This document shows, piece by piece, positions 6,949-39,673 of a DNA stretch of 39,673 bases. This DNA is from a virus. Its lineage: Duplodnaviria > Heunggongvirae > Uroviricota > Caudoviricetes. The stretch lies in IMG/VR virus record IMGVR_UViG_3300045988_165115. The stretch is one strand, 5' to 3'. Each line of letters starts with the position of its first letter. The stretch's first letter is position 1. Made by a program: the position numbers and the translations under genes. The notes beneath the pieces were generated by a model. The model ran no database searches, was not told the origin of the DNA, and was given only the letters and a program-made list of their open reading frames with translations.

Positions 6949-8784
6949 TTACCTGCCAAAGCGCGTATAGCCAACATCATGGCTGACATCAAAACCGCTG
7001 GATCGCGTTTCCATAACCCGCATACCCGGAGGCGAATTCACAAAAGAGACCTTGATCTCACCATCAACTTTTGGCGCAGAAGCTTTGTTAATCATGAAGG
7101 GATTCGGGCCTGTGGCATCGGAGGCGTTGTTTGACTGAGCCAGATCTACCGCCGGATAAGGTGTGTATCCCCGCGCCGGTATTCCCGTCCCATAAGCATC
7201 ATAAGCACCCGCGCCCCACTGCGCAGAGTTAATGGCATCGACCGTGTCACCGGAACTGTCGGTAAACCACTCAATAATTGGCTTCAGCTTGTCCCACATA
7301 TCCTGAAACCACTTAACAACCGGCCCCCAGTTATTGATCACCATACCCAGCGGCGACCAGGCAAAAACTTTCTTAAGGAGTTCCCAGCCAGCCTCAAAAT
7401 AAGGACCAATGGTTTCCCAGAGTTTCTTAAAATAAGGTCCGACAACATCCCAGTTAGTGATAATTAATCCCGCAGCCAGGGCTATCGCCGTCGCAATCAT
7501 GCCAATCGGCGTCATCGACATAATCCTGCTGACAATACTGATGGCACCGCCAACGCCCATCAATCCCAGTTTCAGAATCGCAAGACCGGCAGCAAGCCCG
7601 ACGACGCCGCGAATAACCCGGGGATTTTCATCCGCAAACTTCGTGAATTTTTCCCCCAACTCCCCCAGCCACTGCGTGATGTTTTTAGCGTCATCAGAAA
7701 ATGCGCCACCAATAGCCGCAAGGCCGTTAGTTGCGGTCCCCGTCATTGCCTCCCACAGGTTGGACAGCGTACCAAGCTGTGCCTGAACACGTTTATTCAG
7801 GCTGGCCTGTTTATTCATCTTTTGCTGGATCTGATCGTAACCATCCTTTCCTTTATCGATCAGCGCATTGACCACCTGAAGGGTTTCGGCATCATCACCA
7901 AATATTGCCTTAAGTACACCTGTTCGCTTAACGTCGGTCAGTTTTCGCAGCTTTGTCAGTTGCTTAAACATGTTATCAAGACCGCCAAAACTTCCTTTGC
8001 TGTCAGTAAAATCGAGCTGTACCCCGAGTTTCTGGCGGGCCATGACTTTATTGACGTCCCTGATTTTCTTAACGCTTAATCCAGACTGAATAACTTTTCG
8101 CAGGGCATTACCTGCCGACTCCCCGTTCATCCCCATCTGATCCATCATGACGCTGATGGGGGCAAGGCTCTGGGCAGCCTGAAGACCGTCCTTATTCACC
8201 ATCTTCAGAATAGAACTGGTTTTAGTGAAAAAGGACAACATGTTGGTATCGTCAACGCCCAGATAAAACGCCTTCTGAATTGTGTCGAACAGCCCCATCA
8301 TGTCTTCTGATGCCGTTCCGGTAGCATCCTGCATCTTTGCGGCAAACTCAGCAGCCGCTTCCGGTGTTTTTTTCAGTTGTATCGCAAGATAAGCCGTCGC
8401 TTTACCCACACCGCCAAGAATGTTTTCTGCCGGGATCCCCTGACGCACCAGCATCTGCATCATATTCTGAAAATCAGCCGTTGTGCCGGGTAGCTGGTTA
8501 CCCAGGCCAATAGCCAGTTTATTGATGTCCTGAAAGCTCTTTCCGACCTCACCGTTCGCATCCATCATGGCAACTTTCAGCCCGGTGGCGGCGTTTTCCT
8601 GATCGGCATAAGATTTCAGGGAAAGCGTCAGACCCGCTGCCAGCCCGCCACCAAGCGCCAGCCCACCCTGTGACGCTTCTTCCGCCTGACGTTTAAATCC
8701 CCGGATTTTCTTTTGCATTTTCGACAGTGCGGGAGAAAGCCTGTCGACACCGGTGATCAACGCCTTAAGCTCAAATTCAGCCAT
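6949..8784 (-). CDS. tail tape measure protein
   Basis: 611 aa, Ala/Gly-rich with internal hydrophobic segments, located between the chaperone and baseplate genes. Confidence 0.8.
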   Translation of the reverse strand: MAEFELKALITGVDRLSPALSKMQKKIRGFKRQAEEASQGGLALGGGLAAGLTLSLKSYADQENAATGLKVAMMDANGEVGKSFQDINKLAIGLGNQLPGTTADFQNMMQMLVRQGIPAENILGGVGKATAYLAIQLKKTPEAAAEFAAKMQDATGTASEDMMGLFDTIQKAFYLGVDDTNMLSFFTKTSSILKMVNKDGLQAAQSLAPISVMMDQMGMNGESAGNALRKVIQSGLSVKKIRDVNKVMARQKLGVQLDFTDSKGSFGGLDNMFKQLTKLRKLTDVKRTGVLKAIFGDDAETLQVVNALIDKGKDGYDQIQQKMNKQASLNKRVQAQLGTLSNLWEAMTGTATNGLAAIGGAFSDDAKNITQWLGELGEKFTKFADENPRVIRGVVGLAAGLAILKLGLMGVGGAISIVSRIMSMTPIGMIATAIALAAGLIITNWDVVGPYFKKLWETIGPYFEAGWELLKKVFAWSPLGMVINNWGPVVKWFQDMWDKLKPIIEWFTDSSGDTVDAINSAQWGAGAYDAYGTGIPARGYTPYPAVDLAQSNNASDATGPNPFMINKASAPKVDGEIKVSFVNSPPGMRVMETRSSGFDVSHDVGYTRFGR

Positions 8785-21619: not shown

Positions 21620-22795
21620 ATGGATATAACTTGTTTAGAATGTGGCAATGTTCTTGACGACCCAACTGTAGCTTGCGATAAATGCGGTGCCACGCCTCAT
21701 GTTGTAGTGCTGGGCAAACAATCGTACTTTCCTATTGGTGCTGTAACAGCAAATCTTGAAAAAAATGATTCAAGAGCATTTGATTATCGATTAGGTGAAG
21801 TTTGGGATCTAAAAAATGAAGTCACATCTGAATTCATAACCAGAATTGAGAAAAAATTTAGCCGAAAAAACAAATTTCATAACTTCCTAGACTCAGATCA
21901 CAACCCTTCATCCATTCCTACGATCCTAAAAAAATACATTAATAAAAATAATGAATTCATTGATTTATCTAGAGCTATAATAGAGAAGCTTAAACATAAT
22001 GCTAATAACGAATCGAGAGTTGCCCAACTTCAGGGGGGGAGCGTTGTTTTCATCCACTATAAGTCTACCGAACCAGAGGATTTGGGGAAACTTCTAATCG
22101 TAATGGTTGATAAACAAAGCGCCTATGACTTTGATTCGGATAAGTTGACCCCAACAAGATTAAATCCAATTAATACCGATGCCTTACGGCAGGCTGCGAT
22201 GTTCGATTTAACTTTATTCGAAGCCAGTTATCCAGAAAACAAGGGTGACTCATATGTACATTTCTTGCAAGGTAAATCTAAAAGCGATTTTTTCAAAGAC
22301 TCATTAGGTTGCCGACATGATTCGGACAATAAAAGAAGCATTCAGCAATTATTCAGTGCTATAGATATTTTTGCTAGTAAAAACTCACTCGGTCGTGTAC
22401 TGCGTGATACTATTGACAATGAAGTTAAATCCTTACTGGAAAAAAAATCAAAAGATAAACACGGAAATAAGTCCGTTAAGATAGAGGATATTTCAAAAAT
22501 AATTGACTCATGCCTGACTGATTCACACAAATGTAAGGGAACGTTTGTCGATTTTGTTAATCTTAATGGTTTCCAGATTGACCCTCAATTTGAACCAACT
22601 CCTAAAGCAGCTGAAAGCGCGCTTACAATTGAAGTGGCAGATAACGACAATAATTTTAAGTTGAAAATAATGCGTGGAGCTATTGGAGACGAAAAGTCAA
22701 ATAAGCCTGTAATTCTCACTGACAACAAATGCGAAATTGTGATAAAATTGAGTCAGGCAAATTATGATGAACTCAAAAGATATAGAGACAGCTAA
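21620..22795 (+). CDS. zinc-ribbon plus NdpA/YejK-like (NA37) nucleoid-associated-protein-like domain protein; first gene of the cargo operon
   Basis: N-terminal CxxC-x12-CxxC; central region (GGSVVFIHY...LNPINTD...DLTLFE...YVHFLQGKS...DFFKDSLGC) follows the YejK/NdpA motif pattern as recalled; AT-rich; opposite strand to the late genes. Confidence 0.55.
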   Translation: MDITCLECGNVLDDPTVACDKCGATPHVVVLGKQSYFPIGAVTANLEKNDSRAFDYRLGEVWDLKNEVTSEFITRIEKKFSRKNKFHNFLDSDHNPSSIPTILKKYINKNNEFIDLSRAIIEKLKHNANNESRVAQLQGGSVVFIHYKSTEPEDLGKLLIVMVDKQSAYDFDSDKLTPTRLNPINTDALRQAAMFDLTLFEASYPENKGDSYVHFLQGKSKSDFFKDSLGCRHDSDNKRSIQQLFSAIDIFASKNSLGRVLRDTIDNEVKSLLEKKSKDKHGNKSVKIEDISKIIDSCLTDSHKCKGTFVDFVNLNGFQIDPQFEPTPKAAESALTIEVADNDNNFKLKIMRGAIGDEKSNKPVILTDNKCEIVIKLSQANYDELKRYRDS

Positions 22796-22797
22796 TA

Positions 22798-24012
22798 ATG
22801 ACAATTGCTGATGACTTATCAAGATTAGCGCAGATTATTAACGGAGCCTCAAGCAGAGTTGAGGGCTACTACACTGTCATAAGTCTTGAAGAAAGCATTG
22901 TTATTGTAAATAGTTCTGAAATAATTAGACTGTTACAATCTATAGGTTATAAAAAGGCAACAACCTGCATCGAAAATAATGAAATTTGGCTAGATCGCCA
23001 AGCTTCATCTTGGGATGATGCTATAATTTATGAGAATGTTGAGTCTTTTTGGTCTAGAGTAAACACCCAAAACGCTCTTCCGAAAAATTATATCATCGGA
23101 ACGCCGTTAATACTCCCTACTTCTAAGAATGAAAGCATCGAAAAAATCCATATTTTCTTTATGTGGAAAGATATCCTTTCATTAATTTCTGATCATCATA
23201 ACAGTGACTGCTCTGTCTTATTTTTCACCAATGAAGACAAAAGTTATACAGTCGAACTCACGCATTTTTTACAATATAGCGAGATTAATCGCTTATCGAA
23301 CTCGTCTCTTAAATATGAAATTATAAAGGAGCTTCTCGACACAATAAAAATCAATGATTTACACAAAAGCGAGCGCAAGCTCGTTATACGCTCAGCCATA
23401 AACGAAGTATTTAAAGCAAATGGTACGTTCAATTTCTTTGACTTGCTTAACTCTACTGAACTCGTCAGGAAAAAATATGATGAACTATATGAGATTTACA
23501 CAAAGAGGTTTTCTGTAAATAAAATTCTTAACGAACTCGATGAGAAAAATCTTGAGTTCACGAGTAAAATTAACGAATTCATATCATCTAATCAGACAAA
23601 AGCATTGACTATTCCCGGTGCATTAATAGCAGCTGGTGGCTTAGTGAAGGCTAATGAAACAACCGAAGCAATATTGATTATCGCAGGACTTTGGATGATA
23701 AAAAAAGTCAATTACATTTCTATTGAGATATTCAATGAAACATTCGACAACTTACGTTCTCGAGTGGAGTCCGCTTTCGATAAGTATTTAAAGTTTGAAG
23801 AAAATAAAGAAATCAAAGATAATGCAGATAGTATTAAGAGTAGCATTACAGGTTTGATTGATAAAGCTAAAAAAAGGATGAGAACTGTTAAATATCTCGC
23901 ATCAGCCATGTTTTATGGAGGCCTTATTTACGTTGGATATAAACAGTTCCCAGTCTTTTTTGAAAAATCGGCAGTAAATCTATTTTATTTTTTATGCCAT
24001 ACTATAAGCTAA
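22798..24012 (+). CDS. hypothetical membrane-associated protein, second gene of the cargo operon
   Basis: 404 aa; ATG 2 nt after the upstream stop; hydrophobic segments LTIPGALIAAGGLV, AILIIAGLWMI and YLASAMFYGGLIYVGY; 3' end overlaps the Q 3' end by 21 nt. Confidence 0.55.
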   Translation: MTIADDLSRLAQIINGASSRVEGYYTVISLEESIVIVNSSEIIRLLQSIGYKKATTCIENNEIWLDRQASSWDDAIIYENVESFWSRVNTQNALPKNYIIGTPLILPTSKNESIEKIHIFFMWKDILSLISDHHNSDCSVLFFTNEDKSYTVELTHFLQYSEINRLSNSSLKYEIIKELLDTIKINDLHKSERKLVIRSAINEVFKANGTFNFFDLLNSTELVRKKYDELYEIYTKRFSVNKILNELDEKNLEFTSKINEFISSNQTKALTIPGALIAAGGLVKANETTEAILIIAGLWMIKKVNYISIEIFNETFDNLRSRVESAFDKYLKFEENKEIKDNADSIKSSITGLIDKAKKRMRTVKYLASAMFYGGLIYVGYKQFPVFFEKSAVNLFYFLCHTIS

Positions 24013-26892: not shown

Positions 26893-27542
26893 GCCGCCAT
26901 CTCCCTGACCAGTTTTTCCGCCTGCTGGCGAACCTGTGCCAGAAAGGCCTCACCACATGCCTCAAGTTCATCGCGCCCGATGTAGCTGATTGCCGGTCCC
27001 TTCCAGGTCTTGTCGAAAACAGCAATAGCACCAGCGAAGAAAGCGCCTGTCGGCACCTGCTTCTCATCTTTCGGGATAAACCAGGCAGGCAGTTCAAAAC
27101 CAATACGCCCGCGAATAAAAGCAATATGGTCTGCATCTTCCGGCCACCACACTTCGCTGGTGGCAGCTTTGATCAGGAAAACATAGCGCCCGCCTTTATC
27201 ACGCATGGCACCGGCATGTTTCATGATGTAACGCATGCCGGTGATGTATTGCCCCTCATGCTGACTGGCGCGACTGTATGGGGGATTACCAAAGGCAGCA
27301 CCTTTAAGCTCCGCAAGACGTTCTGACCAGTCATGCGCCAGCGCGTTGTCTTCCGCCGTGTAATACGCGGTACATTTGGCGTTATCACCGTCAGTAAACA
27401 GATCCAGGACAAACGGGCCAAACAGGGTGTTAATTCCCCAGAAAATGTTATCCGGCGTGCGCCACTGATCGCCCACTTCCTTCAGTTCATGGGCTGGTTT
27501 GTTCCGCAGTTCCACCAGCGCCCGGCAATATTTATTACTCAT
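26889..27542 (-). CDS. phage DNA N6-adenine methyltransferase (Dam-like); start set to the internal MSNKYCR
   Basis: NPPY catalytic motif (GNPPYS); TAATG stop/start overlap with the upstream gene at 27542. Confidence 0.75.
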   Translation of the reverse strand: MSNKYCRALVELRNKPAHELKEVGDQWRTPDNIFWGINTLFGPFVLDLFTDGDNAKCTAYYTAEDNALAHDWSERLAELKGAAFGNPPYSRASQHEGQYITGMRYIMKHAGAMRDKGGRYVFLIKAATSEVWWPEDADHIAFIRGRIGFELPAWFIPKDEKQVPTGAFFAGAIAVFDKTWKGPAISYIGRDELEACGEAFLAQVRQQAEKLVREMAA

Positions 27543-28036
27543 TAAGCCCCCACGTAATTCCCTGACAGATACCACTCTTCACCCGATGCAGCGCGCTTGC
27601 TGCTTTTCCGTAAGCACCGCTCACGACGTGCCAGAAAATTGTTTCGTTCTGGCTGGGAGTGGCTTTCACGGAATGCCGCCATCCACACGGTTGCAGCACG
27701 ACGGTATAAGCCCCTTGACTCCAGTTCTTCAGCCTGGCGGGTCAGGCATAAAATCACCCGGGGATCGTTAGTGCCGACATAGAAATTGCGCACAGGTCTG
27801 GTTTCACGAACTGGTTGTGGTTCCGGCTCCTGCGCTCTCTCAGTCAGGCGCGGGAAATGTCTGCGTGTATCTCCTTCACAACGGTGAGCCACACGCCCAC
27901 TCTGACGTAACTTGCTTGCTGACTGCAGAACGCGCTGCCGTGAGTAACCTGCAAAAGCATCCGCAATGTCTCCGGAAGTACAGCCCGGATGGGCTTCAAT
28001 GAATTTCTGAACGTCATTCAAAAGACTCATGCTCAC
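27542..28036 (-). CDS. hypothetical regulator, winged-helix-like N-terminus and PerC-like C-terminal segment (tentative)
   Basis: 164 aa; C-terminal LESRGLYRRAATVWMAAF resembles the PerC family signature as recalled; overlaps the replication gene stop. Confidence 0.35.
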   Translation of the reverse strand: MSMSLLNDVQKFIEAHPGCTSGDIADAFAGYSRQRVLQSASKLRQSGRVAHRCEGDTRRHFPRLTERAQEPEPQPVRETRPVRNFYVGTNDPRVILCLTRQAEELESRGLYRRAATVWMAAFRESHSQPERNNFLARRERCLRKSSKRAASGEEWYLSGNYVGA

Positions 28037-28974
28037 CCCCTGAATCCTGCCGGGATCTGGCTGTAGTCCACATTGTCGTAACTGGCTTTGAAGTACGGGT
28101 CTTCGCGTTTTTCTGTGTACGTGCTGACGGACGGCGATAAGCGCAGGGAAAGCTCATCCCATTTTTCCCGCAGCTTCGACGGGCTGAGCACGTTACGGCA
28201 CCAGAACGGATCGCGGCTGACGCGGCTGTACATCTCGCAGATTTGTTTGTGAGTACGACCATCCTGCACACACATCAGGCGAATTTCGTTTGCCCAGGCT
28301 GTCCAGTTCGGTTCTTTGGGACGAACCACCTCGCCGTCACATTCGGCAGCCTGCTCGTACAGGGCGATGATTTTTTTCCAGAGCCACTGTGCGCAGGTCA
28401 AATCATCCTGCGTCCCCCACTGGCGCTTTTTAGGGCTGAATACAACCGCATCAGGATGGCGAGTTAAAAAATCCTGTTCAGCCGTCTGCGTGTCCGGTTG
28501 CGAAGCGTCCGGACGAGAAGTTTTTTTATCTGACGGATCATGTTTTGATTTTACTGACGGATCCCCGCCAGATTCTGACGGGTGAAAACCCGCTTTTTTG
28601 CCAGATTTCGACGCATCAAATTTTGACGGGTCAGATTTTGATGCGTCAGATTTTGACGGGTCAGAATCTGACAGTTGAGAAAATGCCGCTGCCTGAAGCT
28701 TCGCAACGTTAAGCTGATAAACATTCGACGCATTGCGGTTACCCTGGCGACGCGCCTTACGCGTTAACCAGCCTTCTGCTTCCAGCCGTGCGATAGCCGT
28801 TCTGACGGTACTCATCCCCGCGCCAATCTGACGGGCAATGGTTTTAATTGATGGCCAGCACACACCTTCGTCATTACTGAAATCAGCCAGGCGGGCCATA
28901 ATTGCCACGCTGGATAACTTCATGCCTGATGCAGCGCAACCATCCCATACATAGCCGGTTAATTTAGTGCTCAT
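28033..28974 (-). CDS. replication initiator / replisome organiser (lambda O-like) with internal iterons
   Basis: 313 aa; winged-helix N-terminus, a central SDPSKSDASKSDPSKFDASKS repeat encoded by the DNA iterons, and a conserved C-terminal domain. Confidence 0.7.
   Translation of the reverse strand: MSTKLTGYVWDGCAASGMKLSSVAIMARLADFSNDEGVCWPSIKTIARQIGAGMSTVRTAIARLEAEGWLTRKARRQGNRNASNVYQLNVAKLQAAAFSQLSDSDPSKSDASKSDPSKFDASKSGKKAGFHPSESGGDPSVKSKHDPSDKKTSRPDASQPDTQTAEQDFLTRHPDAVVFSPKKRQWGTQDDLTCAQWLWKKIIALYEQAAECDGEVVRPKEPNWTAWANEIRLMCVQDGRTHKQICEMYSRVSRDPFWCRNVLSPSKLREKWDELSLRLSPSVSTYTEKREDPYFKASYDNVDYSQIPAGFRG
28528..28678. repeat. iteron array, putative replication origin inside the initiator gene
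   Basis: At least six direct repeats of about 15 bp, consensus CAGATTTTGACGGG, at 28569, 28601, 28616, 28631, 28646 and 28661, the last four with a 15-bp period. Confidence 0.7.
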
Positions 28975-28983
28975 GACCGACCT

Positions 28984-29322
28984 CTATTTCCCTGAATTTA
29001 CGACGAAACTGTTCGAGCGGACTGAAGCATTCATGCTCATAACCTTCGCGGAGGTAGATAACCCGTTGTGTTTCCGGCTCCCAACGAATGACTCTGACGG
29101 GCACTCCGTAGTGATCTTTGAACCAGCGGTTAACTTGTCGCAAAGGACTGTCTCCTTCTGCCGGTTGAAATCACCCACAGCCCACTCTGCAAAGCTGTGG
29201 GTTACAATTTCCCTGTCACCTGGTACATTCACTGCATAGCAATATTCCACCTTCGCTTTTCCACCCGGTACCGGAAGCGCAATCAGTTGCGAGCGACGGT
29301 AGTGTGTTGTTAAACTGTTCAT
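28984..29322 (-). CDS. hypothetical early-operon protein, positional equivalent of e14 ymfM
   Basis: 112 aa between the YmfL-like gene and the replication initiator. Confidence 0.4.
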
Positions 29323-29876
29323 GCGTTAGTTTCTCCACAACCAGAAGCAATCGACGCCACGACGCCCGGAGCTGCACACTCGCGGGCGTCATTACTTTCT
29401 GAAATGCAAAAAATTTTGTAGACAAGTGCTGCATGCTCCTGCAGCTTCGAAATTGAGAGATACAGCTCGTCGTTAATTGCTGTCTTCTCATGCGGTTCCA
29501 CTACACCGTCTTCGATTGCTGAACGAATCTGTTTTGAATAACTGCCGATCTGTTCAATGACTTCCAGCAGACGCTGGTTAATATCGGCGTTGTCCACATC
29601 CTCGACGTCAGGAAGAGACACAAAGACGCCATTTGCAGACTGCGCCACAGCATCAGCAATGAAGTGAGTGCCACCAGCACGCTGTAAAACCATTGCCCAT
29701 CCCAGCGGGAAAATCTGATCGCCATCTGCACGAAGGCGGTTGAATAAAGCGTTTTCTGTTACATCGAGCCAGTCAGCCGCTTCAGCGTAACCACCCGGCA
29801 ACGCCGCGATAGTTTTTCTGACAGCTTTCACGTACCACTCAGGCTGTTTTTCTATTTTCCAGTGATGCTTACCCAC
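29319..29876 (-). CDS. hypothetical early-operon protein, positional equivalent of e14 ymfL / lambda cII
   Basis: 185 aa directly downstream of cro with overlapping stop/start. Confidence 0.45.
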
Positions 29877-30129
29877 GGTTCACCTCCTGTTCCTGTGGTT
29901 TAAACCCATTCTGATTTTGGCTAGATTGAAAACGTGCCGGATAAAGAATCTGCATTTCGCTGACTTCACCCTTAAAAAAATTGGCTAAACGTTCTGCAAG
30001 CTCGATAGATGGAATCTGCTCCAGCCTCTCAATACGACTCAACGTCGCTGGATTGACTTGAACACCCGCAGCAACATGCTGCAAAGTGAAACCATGCGCC
30101 TTACGCACATTTCGTAATGGTGATTGCAT
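29869..30129 (-). CDS. Cro-like HTH (XRE-family) regulator
   Basis: 86 aa; helix-turn-helix LQHVAAGVQVNPATLSRIE; divergent from the cI-like repressor across a 97-bp operator region. Confidence 0.8.
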   Translation of the reverse strand: MQSPLRNVRKAHGFTLQHVAAGVQVNPATLSRIERLEQIPSIELAERLANFFKGEVSEMQILYPARFQSSQNQNGFKPQEQEVNRG

Positions 30130-30140
30130 ATACCCTCCAA

Positions 30141-30226
30141 ATATTGCGCGTTATGCATGTTATTTCACGCAATTATTTTGCGCAAGTTGATTTGCTTATC
30201 ACGCAATAAAGAAATGTAATAAACGC
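30141..30226. promoter_or_regulatory. cI/cro divergent operator-promoter region with repeated TTGCG/CGCAA half-sites
   Basis: Half-sites at 30144 (TTGCGCG), 30166 (CACGCAA), 30178 (TTGCGCAA) and 30200 (CACGCAA); 15-bp palindrome CGCAATTATTTTGCG at 30168-30182. Confidence 0.6.
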
Positions 30227-30919
30227 ATGAACATAGGAAACCGAGTCAGACAACTTCGCCAAGCGAAGAACATGAAAATCGCCGATCTCGCTGAAGCAAT
30301 AGGAGTAGATGCGGCGAACATCTCGCGCTTAGAAACGGGTAAGCAAAAACAATTTACCGAACAAACACTGAGTAATATTGCCAAGAGCTTAGGTGTTGAT
30401 ATTGCTGATCTCTTTACCTCTGCCCTCAAAAGTAATACTGTATATAAAAACAGTAATAATGAGGATGTTGCGCAGGTGAAGGATGTGTTCCGTATTGAAA
30501 TGCTGGATATCAGTGCCAGTGCGGGAAATGGCCTTATCCAGGGCGGTGATGTCATTGATGTGATTCATGCCATCGAATACAGAACTGATAATGCTGTATC
30601 AATGTTCGGCGGACGACCAGCCAATCACATCAAAGTTATCAACGTTCGTGGGGACAGTATGTGTCCAACCATTGAGCCAGGAGATCTCATCTTCGTTGAT
30701 GTCAGCATCAATCAGTTTGATGGTGATGGTATATATGTCTTTGGTTTTGATGACAAAATATACGTTAAAAGACTTCAAATGATTCCTGACAAACTGCTGG
30801 TGATTTCTGATAACCAGATTTACCGTGAATGGGGAATTACTAGCGAAAACGAACACCGATTCATGGTCTTTGGAAAGGTCTTAATCAGTCAGTCGCAAAC
30901 CCTTAAGAGACATAATTAA
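30227..30919 (+). CDS. CI-like prophage repressor (HTH_XRE plus S24 LexA-like autopeptidase)
   Basis: N-terminal HTH (NMKIADLAEAIGVDAANISRLETGK) and C-terminal S24 motifs (GDSMCPTIEPGDLIFVD ... KRL). Confidence 0.9.
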   Translation: MNIGNRVRQLRQAKNMKIADLAEAIGVDAANISRLETGKQKQFTEQTLSNIAKSLGVDIADLFTSALKSNTVYKNSNNEDVAQVKDVFRIEMLDISASAGNGLIQGGDVIDVIHAIEYRTDNAVSMFGGRPANHIKVINVRGDSMCPTIEPGDLIFVDVSINQFDGDGIYVFGFDDKIYVKRLQMIPDKLLVISDNQIYREWGITSENEHRFMVFGKVLISQSQTLKRHN

Positions 30920-30938
30920 CCTCAATATCCCATCCATC

Positions 30939-30963
30939 GGCCACCGAAAGGTGGCTTTTTATT
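30939..30963 (+). terminator. rho-independent terminator downstream of the repressor gene
   Basis: GCCACC-GAAA-GGTGGC hairpin followed by TTTTTATT. Confidence 0.75.
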
Positions 30964-31196
30964 ACCCATCATTTTGCATATATCGCAATATTACTTGCAT
31001 ATCTCGCAATTTAATTTTATCTTTTGTTCCAGACCAACTACAGGATTACAACAAAATCTGGTTGCAAAACGGTGCATGTGTCGTAAGCGGTCAGTAAATG
31101 TCAAAAACGAACAGGCAGGACGCCCACGAAGTAGCAGCCTGGGGCATATGAAGTCCAGGATGATTCGTTAGCGGATGATTTCAGTGGAGAGAATAG

Positions 31197-31505
31197 ATGA
31201 ATGAGCAGGATTTGAAGCATGTGATCGCATTGTTGCTGGAAGACGCTAAACGTTTGCAGCAGATAGAGCCAAATGCAGGCACTGAGGCCCGTATTTTGTT
31301 AGCAAAACAGGCATTAAAGACTTGCGAGGCGCAAGACCCTGATCGAACCAAGTTCATGAATTTCATGGCTAACACGATCACCCCACTGCCATGCAATGGA
31401 GAGAGGGTGAGCCGTGTTTATCACGACACAATGGTTAAGGCATTAAGAATCGAGCTTGATGGGCTTAGGCGTAAGATCGTGATGAACAAAATCGTTGCCA
31501 ACTAA
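31197..31505 (+). CDS. hypothetical protein, positional equivalent of e14 ymfJ
   Basis: 102 aa; GGAGA Shine-Dalgarno 6 nt upstream of the ATG. Confidence 0.5.
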   Translation: MNEQDLKHVIALLLEDAKRLQQIEPNAGTEARILLAKQALKTCEAQDPDRTKFMNFMANTITPLPCNGERVSRVYHDTMVKALRIELDGLRRKIVMNKIVAN

Positions 31506-31784
31506 GGAAGCAGACGGAAGTAAGCATGCGCTTTGTTCAAATTTGCAGACAAATATATTTGCGTCAACACCAGCACTGTTAGCAATGGAAAAAGTTTGAT
31601 CAAGGATTTGTTGGCAGTTCATTGTGCTTTTGAGGATATATCCCTCTGGAATCAGTCTGCAGCAGCTATCGTCAGACTCTTTGATTGTTTTCTGGTACAG
31701 AAAGTTAAGCATTAATTCTTCAAATTTTTTGGTCTGTTCGGCTGTTGCTTCAAACAGACGAACGTGAACATAAAACTGGTTCAT
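31443..31784 (-). CDS. hypothetical protein, positional equivalent of e14 ymfI; start set to the internal MNQFYV
   Basis: AAGGAAA Shine-Dalgarno upstream of the internal ATG; convergent 3' overlap with the 31197 gene. Confidence 0.45.
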   Translation of the reverse strand: MNQFYVHVRLFEATAEQTKKFEELMLNFLYQKTIKESDDSCCRLIPEGYILKSTMNCQQILDQTFSIANSAGVDANIFVCKFEQSACLLPSASLVGNDFVHHDLTPKPIKLDS

Positions 31785-32063
31785 TAGGTTTCCTTGCTGG
31801 CTGTGTGAGAACTCCAGCATACCACCGAGCCTGAAGTGGTGAAAAGACAGGCAATAGTTTCATTGCTGTGTGTAGTCCTGGCGGTACCAGTTTGTACCCT
31901 TGCTTCCGGCTGGTACCGCTCTTTTTACAAAACAGAGAAGAGCATCACCGGACGACGGGCTCATAACCCAATCCATCCGGGCGGCTGCCACCGCAGGTGT
32001 TCTTCTCTGTTTTGTGGAGAAACCAACCGACCTTGCAGGGTCGATATGATGAGGAGCAGCAAA

Positions 32064-32426
32064 ATGGCTAGCGAACGCGGTACTGATGTGCAGGCATTTA
32101 TCGGGGAGCTGGACGGCGGCGTATTTGAAACCAAAATCGGCGCAGTTCTCAGTGAAGTCGCTTCCGGTGTGATGAACACGAAAACCAAAGGTAAGGTCTC
32201 ACTCAACCTGGAAATCGAACCATTTGATGAGAACCGTGTGAAAATCAAACACAAACTCTCATATGTTCGCCCGACTAACCGCGGGAAAATTTCCGAAGAA
32301 GACACCACCGAAACGCCGATGTATGTCAATCGCGGTGGGCGCCTGACTATTCTGCAGGAAGACCAGGGACAATTACTGACTCTTGCCGGTGAGCCTGACG
32401 GAAAACTCCGCGCAGCAGGTCATTAA
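32064..32426 (+). CDS. YfdP-like prophage protein; start set to the internal MASERG
   Basis: GAGGAG Shine-Dalgarno 7 nt upstream of the ATG at 32064; the longer ORF from 31836 has a poor N-terminus. Confidence 0.5.
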   Translation: MASERGTDVQAFIGELDGGVFETKIGAVLSEVASGVMNTKTKGKVSLNLEIEPFDENRVKIKHKLSYVRPTNRGKISEEDTTETPMYVNRGGRLTILQEDQGQLLTLAGEPDGKLRAAGH

Positions 32427-32491
32427 TATCGTTCTTAATTAACTGATTATTTACCTCATCACTGAATATCTTTATATAGTGAGGACTTATT

Positions 32492-33316
32492 ATGTCTCAG
32501 AACTTAGACGCAACCGCAATTAATCAAATCCATGCCCTTATTTCTGCTCAGGGTGTTAATGAAATTATCAGTAAGATTGGTGCCGACGCAGTGGCATTAC
32601 CTGAAAATTTCCGCATTCATGATCTGGAAAAATTTAATTTAAATCGCTTCCGTTTCCGTGGCGCGCTTTCCACTGCCTGCATCGATGACTTTACCCGTTA
32701 TTCTAAAGATCTTGCAGATGAAGGCACCCGCTGCTTTATCGATGCCGATAATATGCGTGCCGTCAGTGTTCTTAACCTGGGTACTATTGATGAACCAGGT
32801 CACGCAGATAATACCGCCACTCTCAAACTGAAAAAGACAGCACCGTTCTCTGCACTGTTGTCTGTTAACGGCGAGCGTAACTCCCAGAAGTCACTGGCAG
32901 AATGGATTGAAGACTGGGCCGACTACCTTGTGGGCTTTGATGCTAATGGTGACGCCATTCAGGCAACCAAAGCGGCTGCGGCGATCCGTAAAATCACAAT
33001 TGAAGCGAACCAGACTGCTGATTTTGAAGACAATGACTTCAGCGGCAAACGCTCCCTGATGGAGTCTGTCGAAGCGAAGACCAAAGACATTATGCCAGTG
33101 GCATTTGAATTTAAATGCGTTCCGTTTGAAGGCCTGAAAGAACGTCCGTTTAAATTACGCCTCAGCATTATCACTGGCGATCGTCCTGTACTGGTACTAC
33201 GCATTATTCAGCTGGAAGCAGTGCAGGAGGAAATGGCTAACGAATTTCGTGATCTGCTTGTTGATAAATTCAAAGACAGCAAAGTAGAAACCTTTATTGG
33301 TACTTTCACCGCCTGA
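32492..33316 (+). CDS. YfdQ-like (DUF2303-like) prophage protein
   Basis: 274 aa; same size and neighbourhood as CPS-53 yfdQ as recalled. Confidence 0.5.
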
Positions 33317-33444
33317 TTTCATTACTGCAAATGCCCCTGCGGGGGCATTTATGGAAACGTAATTGACTCAATAATCGCCTGATGGCGAGGGTTTTCTTTA
33401 ACCAAAATTCAGCGCGGTGCAGCGCATATAACGTGGAGAACAAA

Positions 33445-33981
33445 ATGTCATTTATTAAAACTTTTTCTGGGAAGCATTTTTATTATGACAAGATAAATAA
33501 AGACGACATCGTTATTAACGATATCGCGGTTTCCCTTTCAAATATCTGCCGCTTTGCAGGACACCTTTCACACTTCTATAGCGTCGCCCAACATGCGGTG
33601 CTTTGCAGCATGCTGGTACCGCAGGAATTTGCTTTTGAAGCATTAATGCATGATGCAACAGAAGCGTATTGCCAGGACATCCCCGCAGCACTGAAACGCC
33701 TTCTTCCTGACTATAAACGGATGGAAGAAAAAATAGACGCCGTAATCCGTGAGAAATACGGGTTACCTCAGGCTATGAGCACGCCCGTGAAATATGCCGA
33801 TCTCATCATGCTGGCAACCGAACGCCGCGATCTCGGGCTTGATGATGGCTCTTTCTGGCCAGTATTGGAAGGTATCCCGGCAACAGAGATGTTCGAAGTT
33901 GTTCCTCTGGCTCCTGGCCATGCCTACGAGATATTTATGGAACGTTTTAAAGAGCTGCATAAGATACATAAGCAATCCTGA
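33445..33981 (+). CDS. HD-domain hydrolase, YfdR-like 5'-deoxynucleotidase
   Basis: HD motifs (SVAQHA ... LMHDATEAYCQD); GGAGAA Shine-Dalgarno upstream of the ATG at 33445. Confidence 0.6.
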   Translation: MSFIKTFSGKHFYYDKINKDDIVINDIAVSLSNICRFAGHLSHFYSVAQHAVLCSMLVPQEFAFEALMHDATEAYCQDIPAALKRLLPDYKRMEEKIDAVIREKYGLPQAMSTPVKYADLIMLATERRDLGLDDGSFWPVLEGIPATEMFEVVPLAPGHAYEIFMERFKELHKIHKQS

Positions 33982-34021
33982 CAGCGAAATTAACTAGTGA
34001 AATAGTTTTGTAGCAAAAGAA

Positions 34022-34282
34022 ATGAGGTTATCAAAAATGCTTCAAATGCTGACACTTGAGGAATGGGCTGCGGAAAAATTTAGGAGTAATCCTCCAAGTG
34101 TGTCCACATTGCGTCGTTATGCTAAGCAGAATTTATTTTGTCCACCAGCAATGAAACAAGGTCGACTCTGGCGAGTACGTGAGGACGCAGAGTTAGTTGG
34201 GGAATTAGTTACTCCAGTAATCAAGAAAAGTGATTCTATTATTCTGCAAAGGATTTTAAGCAATGGCAGCCAGACCACGTAA
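34022..34282 (+). CDS. xis: excisionase (lambda Xis-like); start uncertain, alternative ATGs at 34037 and 34046
   Basis: LTLEEWAAEKFRSNPPSVSTLRRYAKQNLFCPPAMKQGRLW parallels lambda Xis; overlaps the int start. Confidence 0.7.
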   Translation: MRLSKMLQMLTLEEWAAEKFRSNPPSVSTLRRYAKQNLFCPPAMKQGRLWRVREDAELVGELVTPVIKKSDSIILQRILSNGSQTT

Positions 34283-35390
34283 AAATAATGTTTCAGTACC
34301 TAACTTGTATCCGCTTTATAGTAGAAAAGTAAATAAAGTCTATTGGCGATATAAGCATCCAGTGACCGGGAAATTTCATTCGTTGGGCACAAATGAAGCT
34401 GAAGCTATTGCTATTGCCACTGAAGCTAACACTCGTCTGGCTGAGCAAAGAACCCGGCAGATTCTAGCTATCAGTGATAGGATCGCAACCAGCAAAGGAA
34501 AAGCGATCACAACGTCAACCTGGTTAGATCGCTATCAAGCGATCCAGGATGACAGGCTCAAAAGTGGTGATATAAGACTCAACACCTATAAGCAAAAAGC
34601 TAAACCAGTATCCTTGCTCAGAGAACGAGCAGGAATGAAGTTGATCTCATCCGTTGATGTTAGAGATATAGCACAATTGCTTGATGAGTATATTGCAGCT
34701 GGACAGCCTAGAATGGCCCAAGTCGTTAGGTCTGTATTGATCGATGTGTTTAAGGAAGCACAGCATTATGGCGAAGTTCCGCCAGGGTATAACCCTGCTC
34801 TTGCGACGAAGCAACCCAAAAGAAAAATTACCCGTCAACGCCTCAGCCTGGAAGAATGGCAAAAAATATTCGATATAGCAGACGCCAGTCATCGTTACAT
34901 GGGAAATGCCATGCTCCTAGCTTTGGTCACTGGGCAGCGTTTGGGAGATATATCCAAAATGAAATTTAGTGATATTTGGGAAGATCATCTTCACGTCATT
35001 CAGGAAAAGACTGGAAGCAAAATCGCTATCCCTCTTTCTCTTCGCCTCAATGCGATTAACTGGAGTTTACGCGATGTAATAGCCCGCTGCCGTGACTATG
35101 CAGTCAGCCCATACCTAGTGCATTTTTTCCGTTCAACTTCACAAGCAGAACGTGGGGCACAGGTTAAATCCAATACATTGACGATGAACTTTAGTAAAGC
35201 GAGAGATTTAGCAGGAATTGACTGGGGTGATGGCTCACCCGCAACATTCCATGAACAAAGATCGTTATCTGAACGCCTGTACAAGGAGCAAGGGATAGAT
35301 ACCAGAAAGCTACTTGGGCATAAAACACAACAACAAACCGATCGTTACCATGATGACCGAGGGAAAGGTTGGAGCAAAGTAGCTTTGTGA
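34263..35390 (+). CDS. int: tyrosine site-specific integrase, lambda Int family
   Basis: 375 aa; catalytic-region motifs (LALVTGQRLGDISKMKFSD; HEQRSLSERLY; LLGHKTQQQTDRYHDDRG) align with lambda Int. Confidence 0.9.
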   Translation: MAARPRKNNVSVPNLYPLYSRKVNKVYWRYKHPVTGKFHSLGTNEAEAIAIATEANTRLAEQRTRQILAISDRIATSKGKAITTSTWLDRYQAIQDDRLKSGDIRLNTYKQKAKPVSLLRERAGMKLISSVDVRDIAQLLDEYIAAGQPRMAQVVRSVLIDVFKEAQHYGEVPPGYNPALATKQPKRKITRQRLSLEEWQKIFDIADASHRYMGNAMLLALVTGQRLGDISKMKFSDIWEDHLHVIQEKTGSKIAIPLSLRLNAINWSLRDVIARCRDYAVSPYLVHFFRSTSQAERGAQVKSNTLTMNFSKARDLAGIDWGDGSPATFHEQRSLSERLYKEQGIDTRKLLGHKTQQQTDRYHDDRGKGWSKVAL

Positions 35391-35600
35391 GCGTTTAAGT
35401 TTCTCAATCCCACATTAATTATCTCATCACACATGTAACAGGCCAAACAGACTGCTCTGAGCGACGAACCGTTGTTGACCAGTAACGCCATAGAGTATAT
35501 TCAGTAAGTGTTCCAATGTATATAAGAAATGCGCTGTGTATATTTTTAATTCAAAATAGTTTGAAGCACAATCATGAAACAGATTCTTATGAATACAAAA

Positions 35601-36716
35601 TTAAATTAAATCAAATAGCCCATGTTCATCTATAGCCTTTGAACTAATTAAGTTCGCGGCTTCTATGTCATTGTCACTTGCCTCAGAAATAAGGAAAAAT
35701 GAATCAACATGATTTTGCAAAATAATTTCCTTATACTTCTTGAGCCATTGTAATTTACCTGTAGTGAACAATACTTTACGCGGTAGCAAAATACGGCTAA
35801 AAACTGATGGAAGATACTCACTTCTATTAAATGGAATAAAAGGGTCGCCTAAAGAAAGAATAGTTAGACGATTAAATTCACCGTGCGAATTCAATTTTTC
35901 AGCTGATTTGGCTATACCACTTGGTAAAAAAACACCTGTCTTGATACCGTTGCGTAAAGCAACAACAGCCATCATTTTATCAAAGGCAGTACCTCCAAAT
36001 AATAAGGAATATCCTTTTTTAACAGAAAGATCAATAGTATCAAGAACAACTTGTTTTTCTATATCACTTGGTGACGTGCTCGAAATTATCGAAAGATCAA
36101 AATCAGTAAATAACTGCCCAGTATAATAAAGATTTTTGCCGGTGAAAGTTGACAACTTTAAAGGAAACATTTTATCATCATGCTTAATTTCAGATACATT
36201 AAGATCTGTTAAGGATGGATAGTTAAAGTTTGGTGAGGCTTTTCCGTGTTTATTATTTTTTGATGCCTGCGGACTAAAAACTAGAATTTCATTTTTATTA
36301 TTACACAGGTAATCCTGTATCATTTTTTTTACAATATCCCAATCAAGACCACCGTGACCACAACCTAAAGCTGGCAGGGTGATTGTTTTTCCATGTTTAT
36401 TATCCAAATATTTCGAGAGCCAATGCAGTCCTTTTTCGATATATTCGTACTTAGACTTATTTCTCCAATGATCCTTGGTGGGAAAGTTTATGATTTCTAT
36501 TTCCTTACCATACGTATCATTACCTTTCCAAACAGCTGGTCTTCCTGGAGATATTTCTCCTTTTTTACACAGCAATACGTATTCATTATACATTTCAGGA
36601 AACTTATTCTTAAAAGCAAAAGCAACCCCTGCCCCCATTACACCAACACAATTAACTGTATTAATTCTAATGTCAGCAGCATAATCGAAAAAATCACCAT
36701 CAACATATCTAATCAT
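35601..36716 (-). CDS. macrodomain protein (TARG1/DarG-type) with a C-terminal Rossmann/SLOG-like domain; candidate DarG-like partner
   Basis: Start set at MIRYVDG, preceded by AAGGAGG; macro motifs GDFFDYAADIRINTVNCVGVMGAGVAFAFKNKF and LPALGCGHGGLDW resemble TARG1/DarG; C-terminal LLFGGTAFDKMMAVVA glycine-rich loop; AT-rich. Confidence 0.6.
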   Translation of the reverse strand: MIRYVDGDFFDYAADIRINTVNCVGVMGAGVAFAFKNKFPEMYNEYVLLCKKGEISPGRPAVWKGNDTYGKEIEIINFPTKDHWRNKSKYEYIEKGLHWLSKYLDNKHGKTITLPALGCGHGGLDWDIVKKMIQDYLCNNKNEILVFSPQASKNNKHGKASPNFNYPSLTDLNVSEIKHDDKMFPLKLSTFTGKNLYYTGQLFTDFDLSIISSTSPSDIEKQVVLDTIDLSVKKGYSLLFGGTAFDKMMAVVALRNGIKTGVFLPSGIAKSAEKLNSHGEFNRLTILSLGDPFIPFNRSEYLPSVFSRILLPRKVLFTTGKLQWLKKYKEIILQNHVDSFFLISEASDNDIEAANLISSKAIDEHGLFDLI

Positions 36717-37186
36717 AAAACCTCCTTTGGTCAGAGTATACATCCTTATTTCTGGCTCTTCAATTCTATTGTCAAAAACTTTTACAAAGTCTGCATCAGT
36801 AAAACTGATGGCGCATTTTAAAATTAAAATCAATATGTCCATATCAAACGTTATATTTGTTATTTTTTGTATTTATTATTCATATCCATCATGTGCTATT
36901 AAATCGCCCAAAAGAACATAATAAATTATGTGCACCACTTTCTTCTTATTGAATTTTGGATTACATTACGATCTAAATTAGATCTTTTGCCAATATCATA
37001 AACATATGCAGCAAACGTTGCAACAAGCTGTTCTCATTCTAACAGTTAGTAGAATATAAACTCTGTAATTAGCACACTGAATTCCCTTCATCTATGAGTT
37101 ACAACATCCTTTAAGTGAATAGTATTGTTAGTTTAAATCTATTAATATCATTCATAAAACTATTTTATATAGTTAAAGTCATTATA

Positions 37187-37214
37187 AATCCATCTGAATA
37201 TATACAGATGGATT
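37187..37214. repeat. perfect 10-bp inverted repeat in the intergenic gap between the DarT-like and macro genes
   Basis: AATCCATCTG - 8-nt loop - CAGATGGATT. Confidence 0.5.
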
Positions 37215-37423
37215 CTGCCAATAGTCTTTGCAGGTGAAGTGCATGTTATATATTTTTTAGGGAATATATTTTCTAATTATTTCTCAGATAAAAATTTGCA
37301 GAACGAAATTACTTTACATAATACCGAATGTTACAGATTATTTTATTGCATATAAGCATTGAACTAACCACTATCACAGTGACTATGTTAATCATAAAAT
37401 CTGCATCAAATTCAAAAAGCTCC

Positions 37424-38770
37424 TCATAAACTGTTCCCCTGCAATCTTTGGAGAACTTCATCCCGGAGATCATCGATCCCGTCAGAAACCTGAGCTAACC
37501 AAACTTGACTTAATGAGCCAATATCAGCCTTACTTAGGGCTACTAACATATTGATATCTTCAGAAGATGTAACTATATCGAACAACTGATTTTTATTCCT
37601 CCCTTTAGCTACTATTTCCCCCAATAAATCATCATACGTAACTAACATCATTATTTTTCTAACTAGATCGGTTTGTATGACTGGCAGATCTTCTGTCAAA
37701 ATTCGTTGTAGCATCGCAAGTGACTTCCTAGGATGCTCTCCATCTGCCTCATGCATGTAATTATTATTCCAACGTGTTTTAGGCCCTTTGCCTATATCAT
37801 GCAAATAAGCGGCCAACTCCAAAACTTCCTGATGAATAGAGTCTAATTGATAAAACTCTGGTGAATTAACTACAAGACTAGCCACTCGTCGACTATGAGA
37901 GCCAACATCTTCATTATGAGGCCCGTAGCTCGTCCCCAATCCATCGATATCTTCAAGCTCTTGGATGGAGGAGAAATTACCACGAATTGCACTTAGAGCA
38001 TCACTAATACTTTGAAATTTTGGCCTCGTTTCTCGTTGAAATGAAGTTACATATTCAATAGCTTCATCAAAAAGCATTTTTAACACTACCGGTCCCGTGA
38101 CTAAGGATGAGGACCAGTTTCCAGGTTGATAATAATAATGTTGAAAATCACCCTCAACAATATTTGGTGGAACAATACCTTTGTTCTGGAAAATACTCCT
38201 CACAATATCAGACATAGAACGATTCCATGTAATTATCTGATTTATTTCGCTTAAAGAGACATGATCTGGCAGCAAAAGTTCTGCCATCTTTTTATGCCTC
38301 TGAGTCTCGTCAGCATAACCCCATGCATTATTATCTATGGTAGCCCAATCTAATACATCAAGCTGGTCAGCTTGAGTATTACCAGAATAAAAGTTCGGTG
38401 GATTAACTGTATTTGCGGAAGCATCTGTAAAATATGACCCATTCCTTGTTTCGAGTGATAATATAGAAACTGAAAGATAGATAATAAATTGCTGATCTAC
38501 ATTTTTTTTATGAAGAACAGACAATTGCATGGGCGTTTTTTTTGCAAAATAAAAAGGAACATAATCATGAACACAACGACCATTCGTATTAGGCACCTGC
38601 ATCACTGCCCTACGCCCCTGTATTCCTTCATCAGCAACATTCACATGTGATATACGACGTGCAATTTTCTGATTAGTCGAAAACAGCCCAGTTTCAATTA
38701 TTGATTCAAGATTATCTACTGACGTAAAGTGATATGCATTTCGGTGTCTATGGTGAACAGGAACTGTCAT
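37424..38770 (-). CDS. DarT-like (DUF4433) DNA ADP-ribosyltransferase domain fused to a C-terminal HD phosphohydrolase domain
   Basis: N-terminal YHFTSVDNLESIIETGL, HDYVPFYFAKKTPM, YFTDASANT and AELLL match DarT motifs including the catalytic glutamate position; C-terminal H...LHDIGKG HD signature; GGGGGA Shine-Dalgarno upstream. Confidence 0.6.
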   Translation of the reverse strand: MTVPVHHRHRNAYHFTSVDNLESIIETGLFSTNQKIARRISHVNVADEGIQGRRAVMQVPNTNGRCVHDYVPFYFAKKTPMQLSVLHKKNVDQQFIIYLSVSILSLETRNGSYFTDASANTVNPPNFYSGNTQADQLDVLDWATIDNNAWGYADETQRHKKMAELLLPDHVSLSEINQIITWNRSMSDIVRSIFQNKGIVPPNIVEGDFQHYYYQPGNWSSSLVTGPVVLKMLFDEAIEYVTSFQRETRPKFQSISDALSAIRGNFSSIQELEDIDGLGTSYGPHNEDVGSHSRRVASLVVNSPEFYQLDSIHQEVLELAAYLHDIGKGPKTRWNNNYMHEADGEHPRKSLAMLQRILTEDLPVIQTDLVRKIMMLVTYDDLLGEIVAKGRNKNQLFDIVTSSEDINMLVALSKADIGSLSQVWLAQVSDGIDDLRDEVLQRLQGNSL

Positions 38771-39112
38771 GTATCCCCCATGAAAAACTATAAAAATTTA
38801 GGTAGTGTGCTTTATATTATTACAGTAATTGTAAATTACCGATATAGGATATCAACCTTCCTGTGATCTAGGTCACTCAGGATGAGCAACTTCCTATTGA
38901 TTAGGATTCAAAATGTTTGAAATGTGCGCTTACAGAACCACAGGCCACTTTGAGCGAAGAACAGACCTAAATATAAACGAGGGTTAATCAGCAATAATTA
39001 TAATAAACTGAGGTATGCCTAATTGGAACTTGACAATATAACTACCATCTCTCCCTAAACAACTAGGAGTTTTGATAACTTATTTTGATAAAATTTTGAT
39101 AACCGTTAGCAG

Positions 39113-39148
39113 ACTAACAAAAAACAACGGGAGCGTTACACTCCCGTT
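39113..39148 (-). terminator. rho-independent terminator downstream of the icd 3' end
   Basis: AACGGGAG-loop-CTCCCGTT hairpin followed on the minus strand by TTGTTTTTTGTT. Confidence 0.7.
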
Positions 39149-39171
39149 AATAGATTTAACAAATCACGATA

Positions 39172-39334
39172 TTACATATTCTTGATGATCGCATCACCAA
39201 ATTCTGAACATTTCAGCAGTTTAGCACCTTCCATCAGACGTTCGAAGTCATAGGTTACGGTCTTCGCGTTGATTGCGCCTTCCATACCTTTAACAATCAG
39301 GTCTGCGGCTTCAGTCCAACCCATATGGCGCAGC
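39172..39334 (-). pseudogene. icd: 3' terminal fragment of isocitrate dehydrogenase gene icd (about 54 codons), attachment-site copy for the e14-like phage
   Basis: Minus-strand translation [54 protein letters not shown] matches the Icd C-terminus; similarity stops abruptly at about 39334. Confidence 0.8.
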
Positions 39335-39673
39335 AGTATATAAAAATTATGTATTCAACTCGCTGATATTTAATCATAAATATTATTTTCTTGTCTTTGT
39401 ATTAGCCAAAATCAACTTTATTCAACCGTTTGATTTCATTGACGTTCGTTTTTATTTTGGGGAAAGATTTTCTCTACCATTTATATCAAAATTACAAGTC
39501 TACATTTTATTAACATCTCAATACATGTGTGGCCTTGCAAGCCATTGCGAGGCCTTATGTGTCTCAGTTTTGTCCCGCCTTGTATTACGACTTGCATAGC
39601 CAATGAAGATAAACGTGACGACAAACAAAGCAGCTGTCTTCTTTTCTTTCACACTTTCCCCACTCAGCAGCAT

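Follow-up and report, generated by a model that had tools for sequence, protein, structure and literature searches.

Phages 21 and e14 have long been known to share an attB at icd. Laboratory K-12(21) lysogens in which phage 21 adjoins e14 at icd were reportedly described by Wang et al. in 1997 (J Bacteriol 179:5705), a paper whose title indicates a common core with different arm specificity.

The icd gene is a classic prophage hotspot with duplication of its 3' end, in which the integrating element brings a replacement 3' end for the gene (PMC3603311, PMC6379469, PMC13626634). The presence of e14 at icd and the resulting icdC go back to Hill, Gray & Brody 1989, as far as this work is summarised in PMC6379469 and PMC13626634. 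Phage-21-like prophages carrying sit and iss have also been described at icd, as PAI-icd of ExPEC (PMC7545054) and as NC-SV of NC101 (PMC12803456), and PAI-LF82-icd is recorded as carrying Iss and Sit (PMC7545054). Tandem islands or satellites at one att site, e.g. the PICI tandems at fis (PMC10111431), resemble the array proposed here in having three related att copies that bound two elements and a shared internal att, and differ from it in the target gene and the element types.

We analysed a stretch of viral DNA of 39,673 nucleotides (IMG/VR record IMGVR_UViG_3300045988_165115), hereafter called the window, which carries an orphan 3' fragment of icd close to its right end. Very probably, two prophages sit in tandem at the icd attachment site of E. 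coli, and this fragment is the att site between them.

Results

The icd fragment together with its terminator occupies the following positions of the window.

39115 to 39149, minus strand: icd intrinsic terminator with an 11-bp stem (6 G-C pairs), a 3-nt loop and a T-run (terminator scan)
39172 to 39335, minus strand: icd 3' fragment; stop codon at 39172-39174 and coding homology at 39175-39335, i.e. 53 codons + 2 nt
39326 to 39335, no strand assigned: inferred strand-exchange (core) zone TGGCGCAGCA at the homology boundary

The stem of the terminator lies at 39125-39149 and the T-run at 39115-39124; the phage 21 annotation lists a terminator at the corresponding place. A 50-codon open reading frame at 39172-39324 on the minus strand encodes the C-terminus of isocitrate dehydrogenase, as seen from the open reading frame listing and its translation. 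The initial annotation had described the last 54 codons of icd plus the terminator, with an abrupt end at about 39334 and AT-rich DNA other than the icd body behind it. The icd end and the terminator were indeed found, whereas the measured extent is the 53 codons + 2 nt given above, up to 39335, a deviation of no more than one codon and one or two bases. The abrupt stop was borne out by the comparison with S87, in which the 3' end of the intact icd is identical to window positions 39093-39335 at 243 of 243 positions (blastn E ~4e-125) and homology is lost completely between 39335 and 39336; here GCAGCA is followed by TCATCTC in the intact gene and by GTATATA in the window. The DNA past the break (39336-39673) has a G+C content of ~34% and lacks similarity to the icd body, in agreement with the earlier description. 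The break point itself is the same in K-12 e14, S87, LF82, VTB96929v and the attP of phage 21.

The whole window was searched for icd 3' fragments and holds a single copy. Lacking an icd body upstream, this copy is a non-functional remnant, and RefSeq annotates the equivalent stretch in MS1657, VTB96929v and LF82 as an incomplete isocitrate dehydrogenase pseudogene. The identity between the window fragment and other icd 3' copies amounts to 88-92%, with only 88-89% for the copies of chromosomal type beside ymgL. Seven complete E. coli genomes, S87 among them, match the window with 100% identity from position 34200 to position 39330-39335, and in all seven the segment abuts an intact icd followed by rluE, nudJ and mnmA. 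Judged by its sequence, the fragment is the icd 3' copy carried in the attP of an e14-type prophage and not a displaced chromosomal original, because S87-type genomes run the same segment straight into intact icd.

The window beyond the break contains three features that match phage 21.

39336 to 39673, no strand assigned: putative end of a second, phage-21-like, sitABCD-bearing prophage (P-arm side of attP), identical to phage 21 OL657228.1 at 338 of 338 positions
39455 to 39466, minus strand: 21-type arm dodecamer CTTTCCCCAAAA, a perfect match to the consensus annotated in phage 21
39518 to 39673, minus strand: 51-aa open reading frame for a putative membrane protein, with DNA identical to phage 21 gene CPT_21_32

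The annotation of phage 21 runs from xis and the tyrosine integrase over three YYTTCCCCAAAA arm sites, a terminator and an ICDH-like pseudogene (last 53 aa) to the 51-aa putative membrane protein, a hypothetical gene, sitA and sitB. The likeness to the phage 21 attP covers the entire flank, including the small open reading frame and the arm dodecamer, and phage 21 carries sit as well. The same 338 bp are also 100% identical in LF82, MS1657 and VTB96929v, where they likewise follow an orphan icd fragment. In LF82 the matching stretch closes a lambdoid prophage with sitABCD and iss that sits at icd; this prophage is found in many ExPEC strains. The flank past the break is thus neither chromosome nor icd body but phage-21-like prophage DNA. 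The start codon of the 51-aa open reading frame coincides with the exact end of the window, and its counterpart in phage 21 contains annotated CII-binding motifs.

The difference lies on the other side of the break. Phage 21 and single lysogens (LF82, for example) have the arm joined to a 21-type or chromosomal icd 3' copy, whereas in the window it is joined to an e14-type copy and P' arm. The identity between the window and phage 21 is 93.9% over the icd 3' segment and only 45% over the arm-site zone.

These comparisons bear on an ordinary explanation of an orphan icd fragment, namely that it is the displaced chromosomal 3' end of icd at the end of a single prophage, like icdC in K-12, and that the AT-rich flank is chromosomal backbone. 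In K-12 the far end of e14 does carry a pseudogene of exactly this kind (PMC13626634), and most complete E. coli genomes with a second icd copy have only two. The fragment of the window, however, is located at the integrase and cargo end of its prophage and not at the far end, and its flank consists of phage 21 DNA, behind which come sitABCD and tail genes, not ymgL and ycgX. We consider a single-prophage end extremely improbable. A related candidate, the fragment as the original chromosomal 3' end, was ruled out, as the fragment matches the phage-borne copy at every position but shares only 88% identity with the one beside ymgL.

On the left side of the break the window holds the integration genes of its own prophage and the cargo between these genes and the att site.

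34037 to 34282, plus strand: excisionase xisE, transferred from the S87 RefSeq annotation over a 100% identical stretch
34263 to 35390, plus strand: e14-type tyrosine integrase IntE (here IntB) with the Pfam domains Arm-DNA-bind_1 and Phage_integrase, reading toward the icd fragment
35601 to 36842, minus strand: DarG-like macro-domain protein, cargo (Pfam Macro 4e-17; PADLOC DarG 7e-58)
37424 to 38770, minus strand: DarT with a C-terminal HD domain, cargo between the att site and int (Pfam DarT 5e-40, HD 3e-06; PADLOC DarT 1e-42)

At the amino-acid level, IntB shares 96% identity with K-12 IntE but only 59-65% with IntA, the integrase of the neighbouring 21-like prophage. These values fit two related integrases that use the same core with different arm specificity. 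The window is an e14-type prophage, seemingly of full length (>39 kb, with Mu-like tail genes). It has in common with e14 of K-12 the integrase type, xis, ymfI and ymfL, the icd 3' duplication of ~163-165 bp with its break point and terminator, the TTTTGATAA repeats described below and the cargo slot between icd and int. In contrast, the K-12 element is a 15-kb remnant beside an intact icd, and its slot is filled by lit, ymfD and ymfE in place of DarT/DarG. Moreover, its int-proximal icd copy abuts the icd body, whereas that of the window abuts another prophage.

The DarT/DarG cargo (35601-38770) is atypical. DarT comprises 448 aa with the HD domain at residues 290-361, and the DarG-like protein comprises 413 aa and covers only positions 1-160 of the PADLOC DarG profile, which has 329. 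Between the two genes lies a spacer of 580 bp (36843-37423) with 25-29% G+C, which is unusual for a toxin-antitoxin pair; elsewhere this spacer carries IS insertions (in the locus L017, and IS50R in MDR_56). The slot between the icd copy and intE (35391-39114 in the window) is a variable cargo position. It contains DarT/DarG in the window, a P-loop ATPase of the Sll1717 family in MS1657, VTB96929v and A42, lit/ymfE/ymfD in K-12, and genes for dual-OB, DUF4326 and DUF488 proteins in LR778149. In OU349843.1 (locus L010, 8349-21347) the intact icd and the same DarT are followed by non-phage genes instead of DarG and int; these encode an Alpha-amylase_C-domain protein and then members of the CsiD, DAO, Aldedh, Aminotran_3 and amino-acid-permease families. 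This suggests that a deletion or rearrangement took away the rest of the prophage.

Further observations concern the body and the far end of the prophage. Two plus-strand genes at 21620-24012 lie beside a long run of minus-strand prophage genes and may be a moron; one encodes a 391-aa protein of the NA37 nucleoid-associated family (Pfam 1e-23) and the other a 404-aa protein without a Pfam or PADLOC match. At 27-1887 the window carries genes for a gp53-like tail-fibre tip and for tail-fibre assembly, arranged as two pairs in opposed orientation, as is typical of an invertible segment. Just outside the window on this side, VTB96929v (L005, 16242-18356) retains the recombinase only as a pseudogene remnant, and a GmrSD (DUF262) gene sits between this remnant and the far icd fragment.

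The available icd 3' copies were aligned, an approach by which the initial annotation had expected to locate the crossover core. They show no differences within 39326-39335, and from 39336 on every flank diverges. The last difference of the window fragment is at 39325 when compared with the LF82 fragment beside sit, and at 39319 when compared with the 21-type copy. Strand exchange would thus have occurred within ~10-16 bp of the boundary, because the last SNPs lie at 39325 and 39319 and divergence starts at 39336. We place it provisionally in the zone 39326-39335 that is common to all copies.

One further feature was located next to the terminator.

39070 to 39102, plus strand: three direct TTTTGATAA repeats, candidate e14-type P' arm-type integrase sites (motif count and position)

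The TTTTGATAA motif has four matches in the window compared with 0.5 expected by chance, and three of the four are clustered at this position. The repeats sit where phage 21 has its three annotated arm sites and are conserved in e14 of K-12; moreover, the e14-type P arm of VTB96929v has the motif ~120 bp from the core. Therefore, these repeats are probable arm sites of the e14 type. On these grounds the internal att site reads as a hybrid in which a 21-type P arm (39336-39673) and the shared core are joined to an e14-type icd 3' copy, terminator and P' arm (39070-39335). An Rfam scan of 33900-39673 yielded sub-threshold matches only. One of these, at 39066-39152 on the plus strand, resembles the 3' part of the Hfq-binding sRNA STnc150 (25.4 bits, E 0.022; gathering threshold 60); this match overlaps the TTTTGATAA repeats as well as the icd terminator and lies on the opposite strand from the latter.

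The position of the exchange also speaks to the question of which recombination pathway was involved. Three direct repeats of ~240 bp are substrates for RecA, so that a tandem could arise by general homologous recombination between icd 3' copies, and the recurrence of one junction in several strains might be due to inheritance of the entire region or to its import through recombination in flanking core genes. Nevertheless, the entire fragment is of the type of the window's prophage to within 10 bp of the boundary, and the break coincides with that in e14, in the phage 21 attP and in all other copies. Such a break is expected for a tyrosine integrase core and not for general recombination, because there is no homology past the boundary that would support a RecA event. 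Import of a ready-made tandem would leave the nature of the structure unchanged. Taken together, we regard an origin by general recombination or import as very unlikely, and integrase-mediated insertion is the reading that we follow below.

To look at the DNA on both sides of the window, loci were found by looking up contigs that encode the DarT of the window, and 26 long contigs were read. About half of them show sit next to the icd fragment, and in the other half the prophage lies beside an intact icd. At least five assemblies with separate listings contain the junction of sit, fragment and DarT; they include multi-megabase records, of which CP163969.1 and CP164641.1 have chromosome-type accessions. 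CP163969.1 (L012) is 100% identical to window positions 27500-39673 (12,174 bp) and, over the 9.1 kb past the window that were read, continues with a gene for a hypothetical protein of 256 aa, sitABCD, two small open reading frames, a tail fibre gene and gpJ. In JANHPO010000001.1 this junction (L011) occurs together with a second icd fragment, which adjoins ycgX (L019). The second fragment is situated ~3 kb to the left of window position 1 in assemblies that are 99.9% identical to the left end of the window.

A complete array was found in VTB96929v. It starts with bluR, ycgX, ymgL and icd fragment 1, continues with the DUF262/GmrSD gene, the recombinase remnant, a window-type prophage, xis, int, an Sll1717-type ATPase (a cargo unlike that of the window) and icd fragment 2, and ends with a hypothetical gene, sitABCD, a lambdoid prophage with iss and ompC, xis, an integrase split by IS2, the intact icd and rluE. 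The internal junction and the flanking genes of MS1657 are as in VTB96929v. In the window's own genotype, two of the three att copies and 9.1 kb of the second element were seen; the second integrase and the intact icd were seen only in the relatives VTB96929v and LF82. The IS2 insertion in the integrase of the 21-like sit/iss prophage (VTB96929v, L007, 483-2961) has probably fixed this prophage in place, and the 21-like element may be immobile in some strains.

These data support the initial annotation, which had proposed a second integrative element in tandem at the same att site and had expected another integrase and a full icd further to the right. Over its entire length the flank matches the attP arm of phage 21 without a difference, CP163969.1 continues into sitABCD, and in VTB96929v, which has the same architecture, both the integrase and the full icd are reached. 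The fragment had also been taken as the shared att repeat. This holds, with the modification that the site is heterologous, combining a 21-type arm with an e14-type arm, and that the icd copy was apparently brought by the window's own prophage.

It should be considered that repeats of ~240 bp with 88-92% identity can mislead short-read assemblers and that contigs might have been joined falsely across the repeated icd 3' sequence. A scan for the junction pattern in a genome contig collection (apparently one genome per species) gave no match, and the particular junction of DarT and sit is absent from the complete RefSeq E. coli genomes in the collection and present in GenBank assemblies. An artefact is very unlikely here, as the identical junction recurs in the separately listed assemblies, an equivalent junction with other cargo is present in two complete RefSeq genomes, and the join lies exactly at the known integration boundary and not within the repeat.

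Discussion

The fragment analyzed in our study most probably lies between two prophages that occupy the icd attachment site in tandem, a 21-like prophage A and the e14-type prophage B of the window. Along the direction of icd transcription, i.e. on the minus strand of the window, the predicted arrangement would start with the intact icd body, the 3' end of which would come from prophage A. It would continue with prophage A (21-like, lambdoid, with iss and sitABCD) and the fragment of the window, a 3' end derived from prophage B. Prophage B with DarT/DarG, intE, xis and the e14-like genome would follow, and then the GmrSD gene, the original chromosomal icd 3' fragment, ymgL and ycgX.

The attP sites of both phage types hold the last ~165 bp of icd together with the terminator, and the tyrosine integrase exchanges strands at the upstream edge of this icd copy. 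Integration thereby leaves icd intact, and the 3' end that the gene had before comes to lie at the opposite end of the prophage (PMC6379469, PMC3603311, PMC13626634). A second phage can then enter at either icd copy, because 21-type and e14-type integrases use the same core. The comparisons directly show the sequence identities, the order of genes in relatives and where the break lies; from these we infer that the tandem originated by integrase action and that the arm sites have the roles assigned to them, and we expect each element to be still able to excise alone. Whether prophage A or prophage B arrived first has left no trace in the sequence, as the junction is the same in either case. For the same reason an inference of the order from SNPs was dropped.

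A comparable arrangement would be that of the K-12(21) lysogens, which reportedly also have, side by side at icd, two heterologous elements that share an attB core but differ in arm specificity. These lysogens are said to be laboratory-made and to contain the defective e14, whereas the window represents a natural and seemingly complete e14-type prophage with defence cargo.

To estimate how often icd is occupied more than once, the 216-bp fragment with the terminator was searched in complete E. coli genomes. It was found at 7351 places in 5425 genomes, with a median of one and a maximum of four per genome, and two of 60 evenly sampled records had three or four places. Therefore, multiple occupancy of icd is a minority but recurrent state. 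The icd site, the duplication of the 3' end, the sharing of the site by 21 and e14, sit/iss prophages at icd and tandem att arrays are all already in the literature, and the junction in the window is a known kind of structure, real but ordinary. It opens no new question, since integration of 21 and e14 at one icd site and tandem occupancy of att sites are already established.

A further reading is that e14-type phages, instead of the live icd, preferentially use attR, the icd copy that a resident 21-like virulence prophage has displaced, and that the hybrid site alters the excision of one or both elements. We consider this unlikely; the share of tandems, about half of the long DarT contigs, could equally reflect clonal inheritance. 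If it were true, the sit/iss prophage could, for example, become trapped at the hybrid site, or both prophages could excise together.

For annotation, the tandem accounts for the orphan isocitrate dehydrogenase pseudogene and fixes the border at which one prophage gives way to the next; prophage callers might fuse the two into a single element of ~90 kb. Moreover, it marks the slot between att and int as a variable cargo position of these prophages, which is occupied by DarT/DarG here and by Lit or an Sll1717-type ATPase in relatives.
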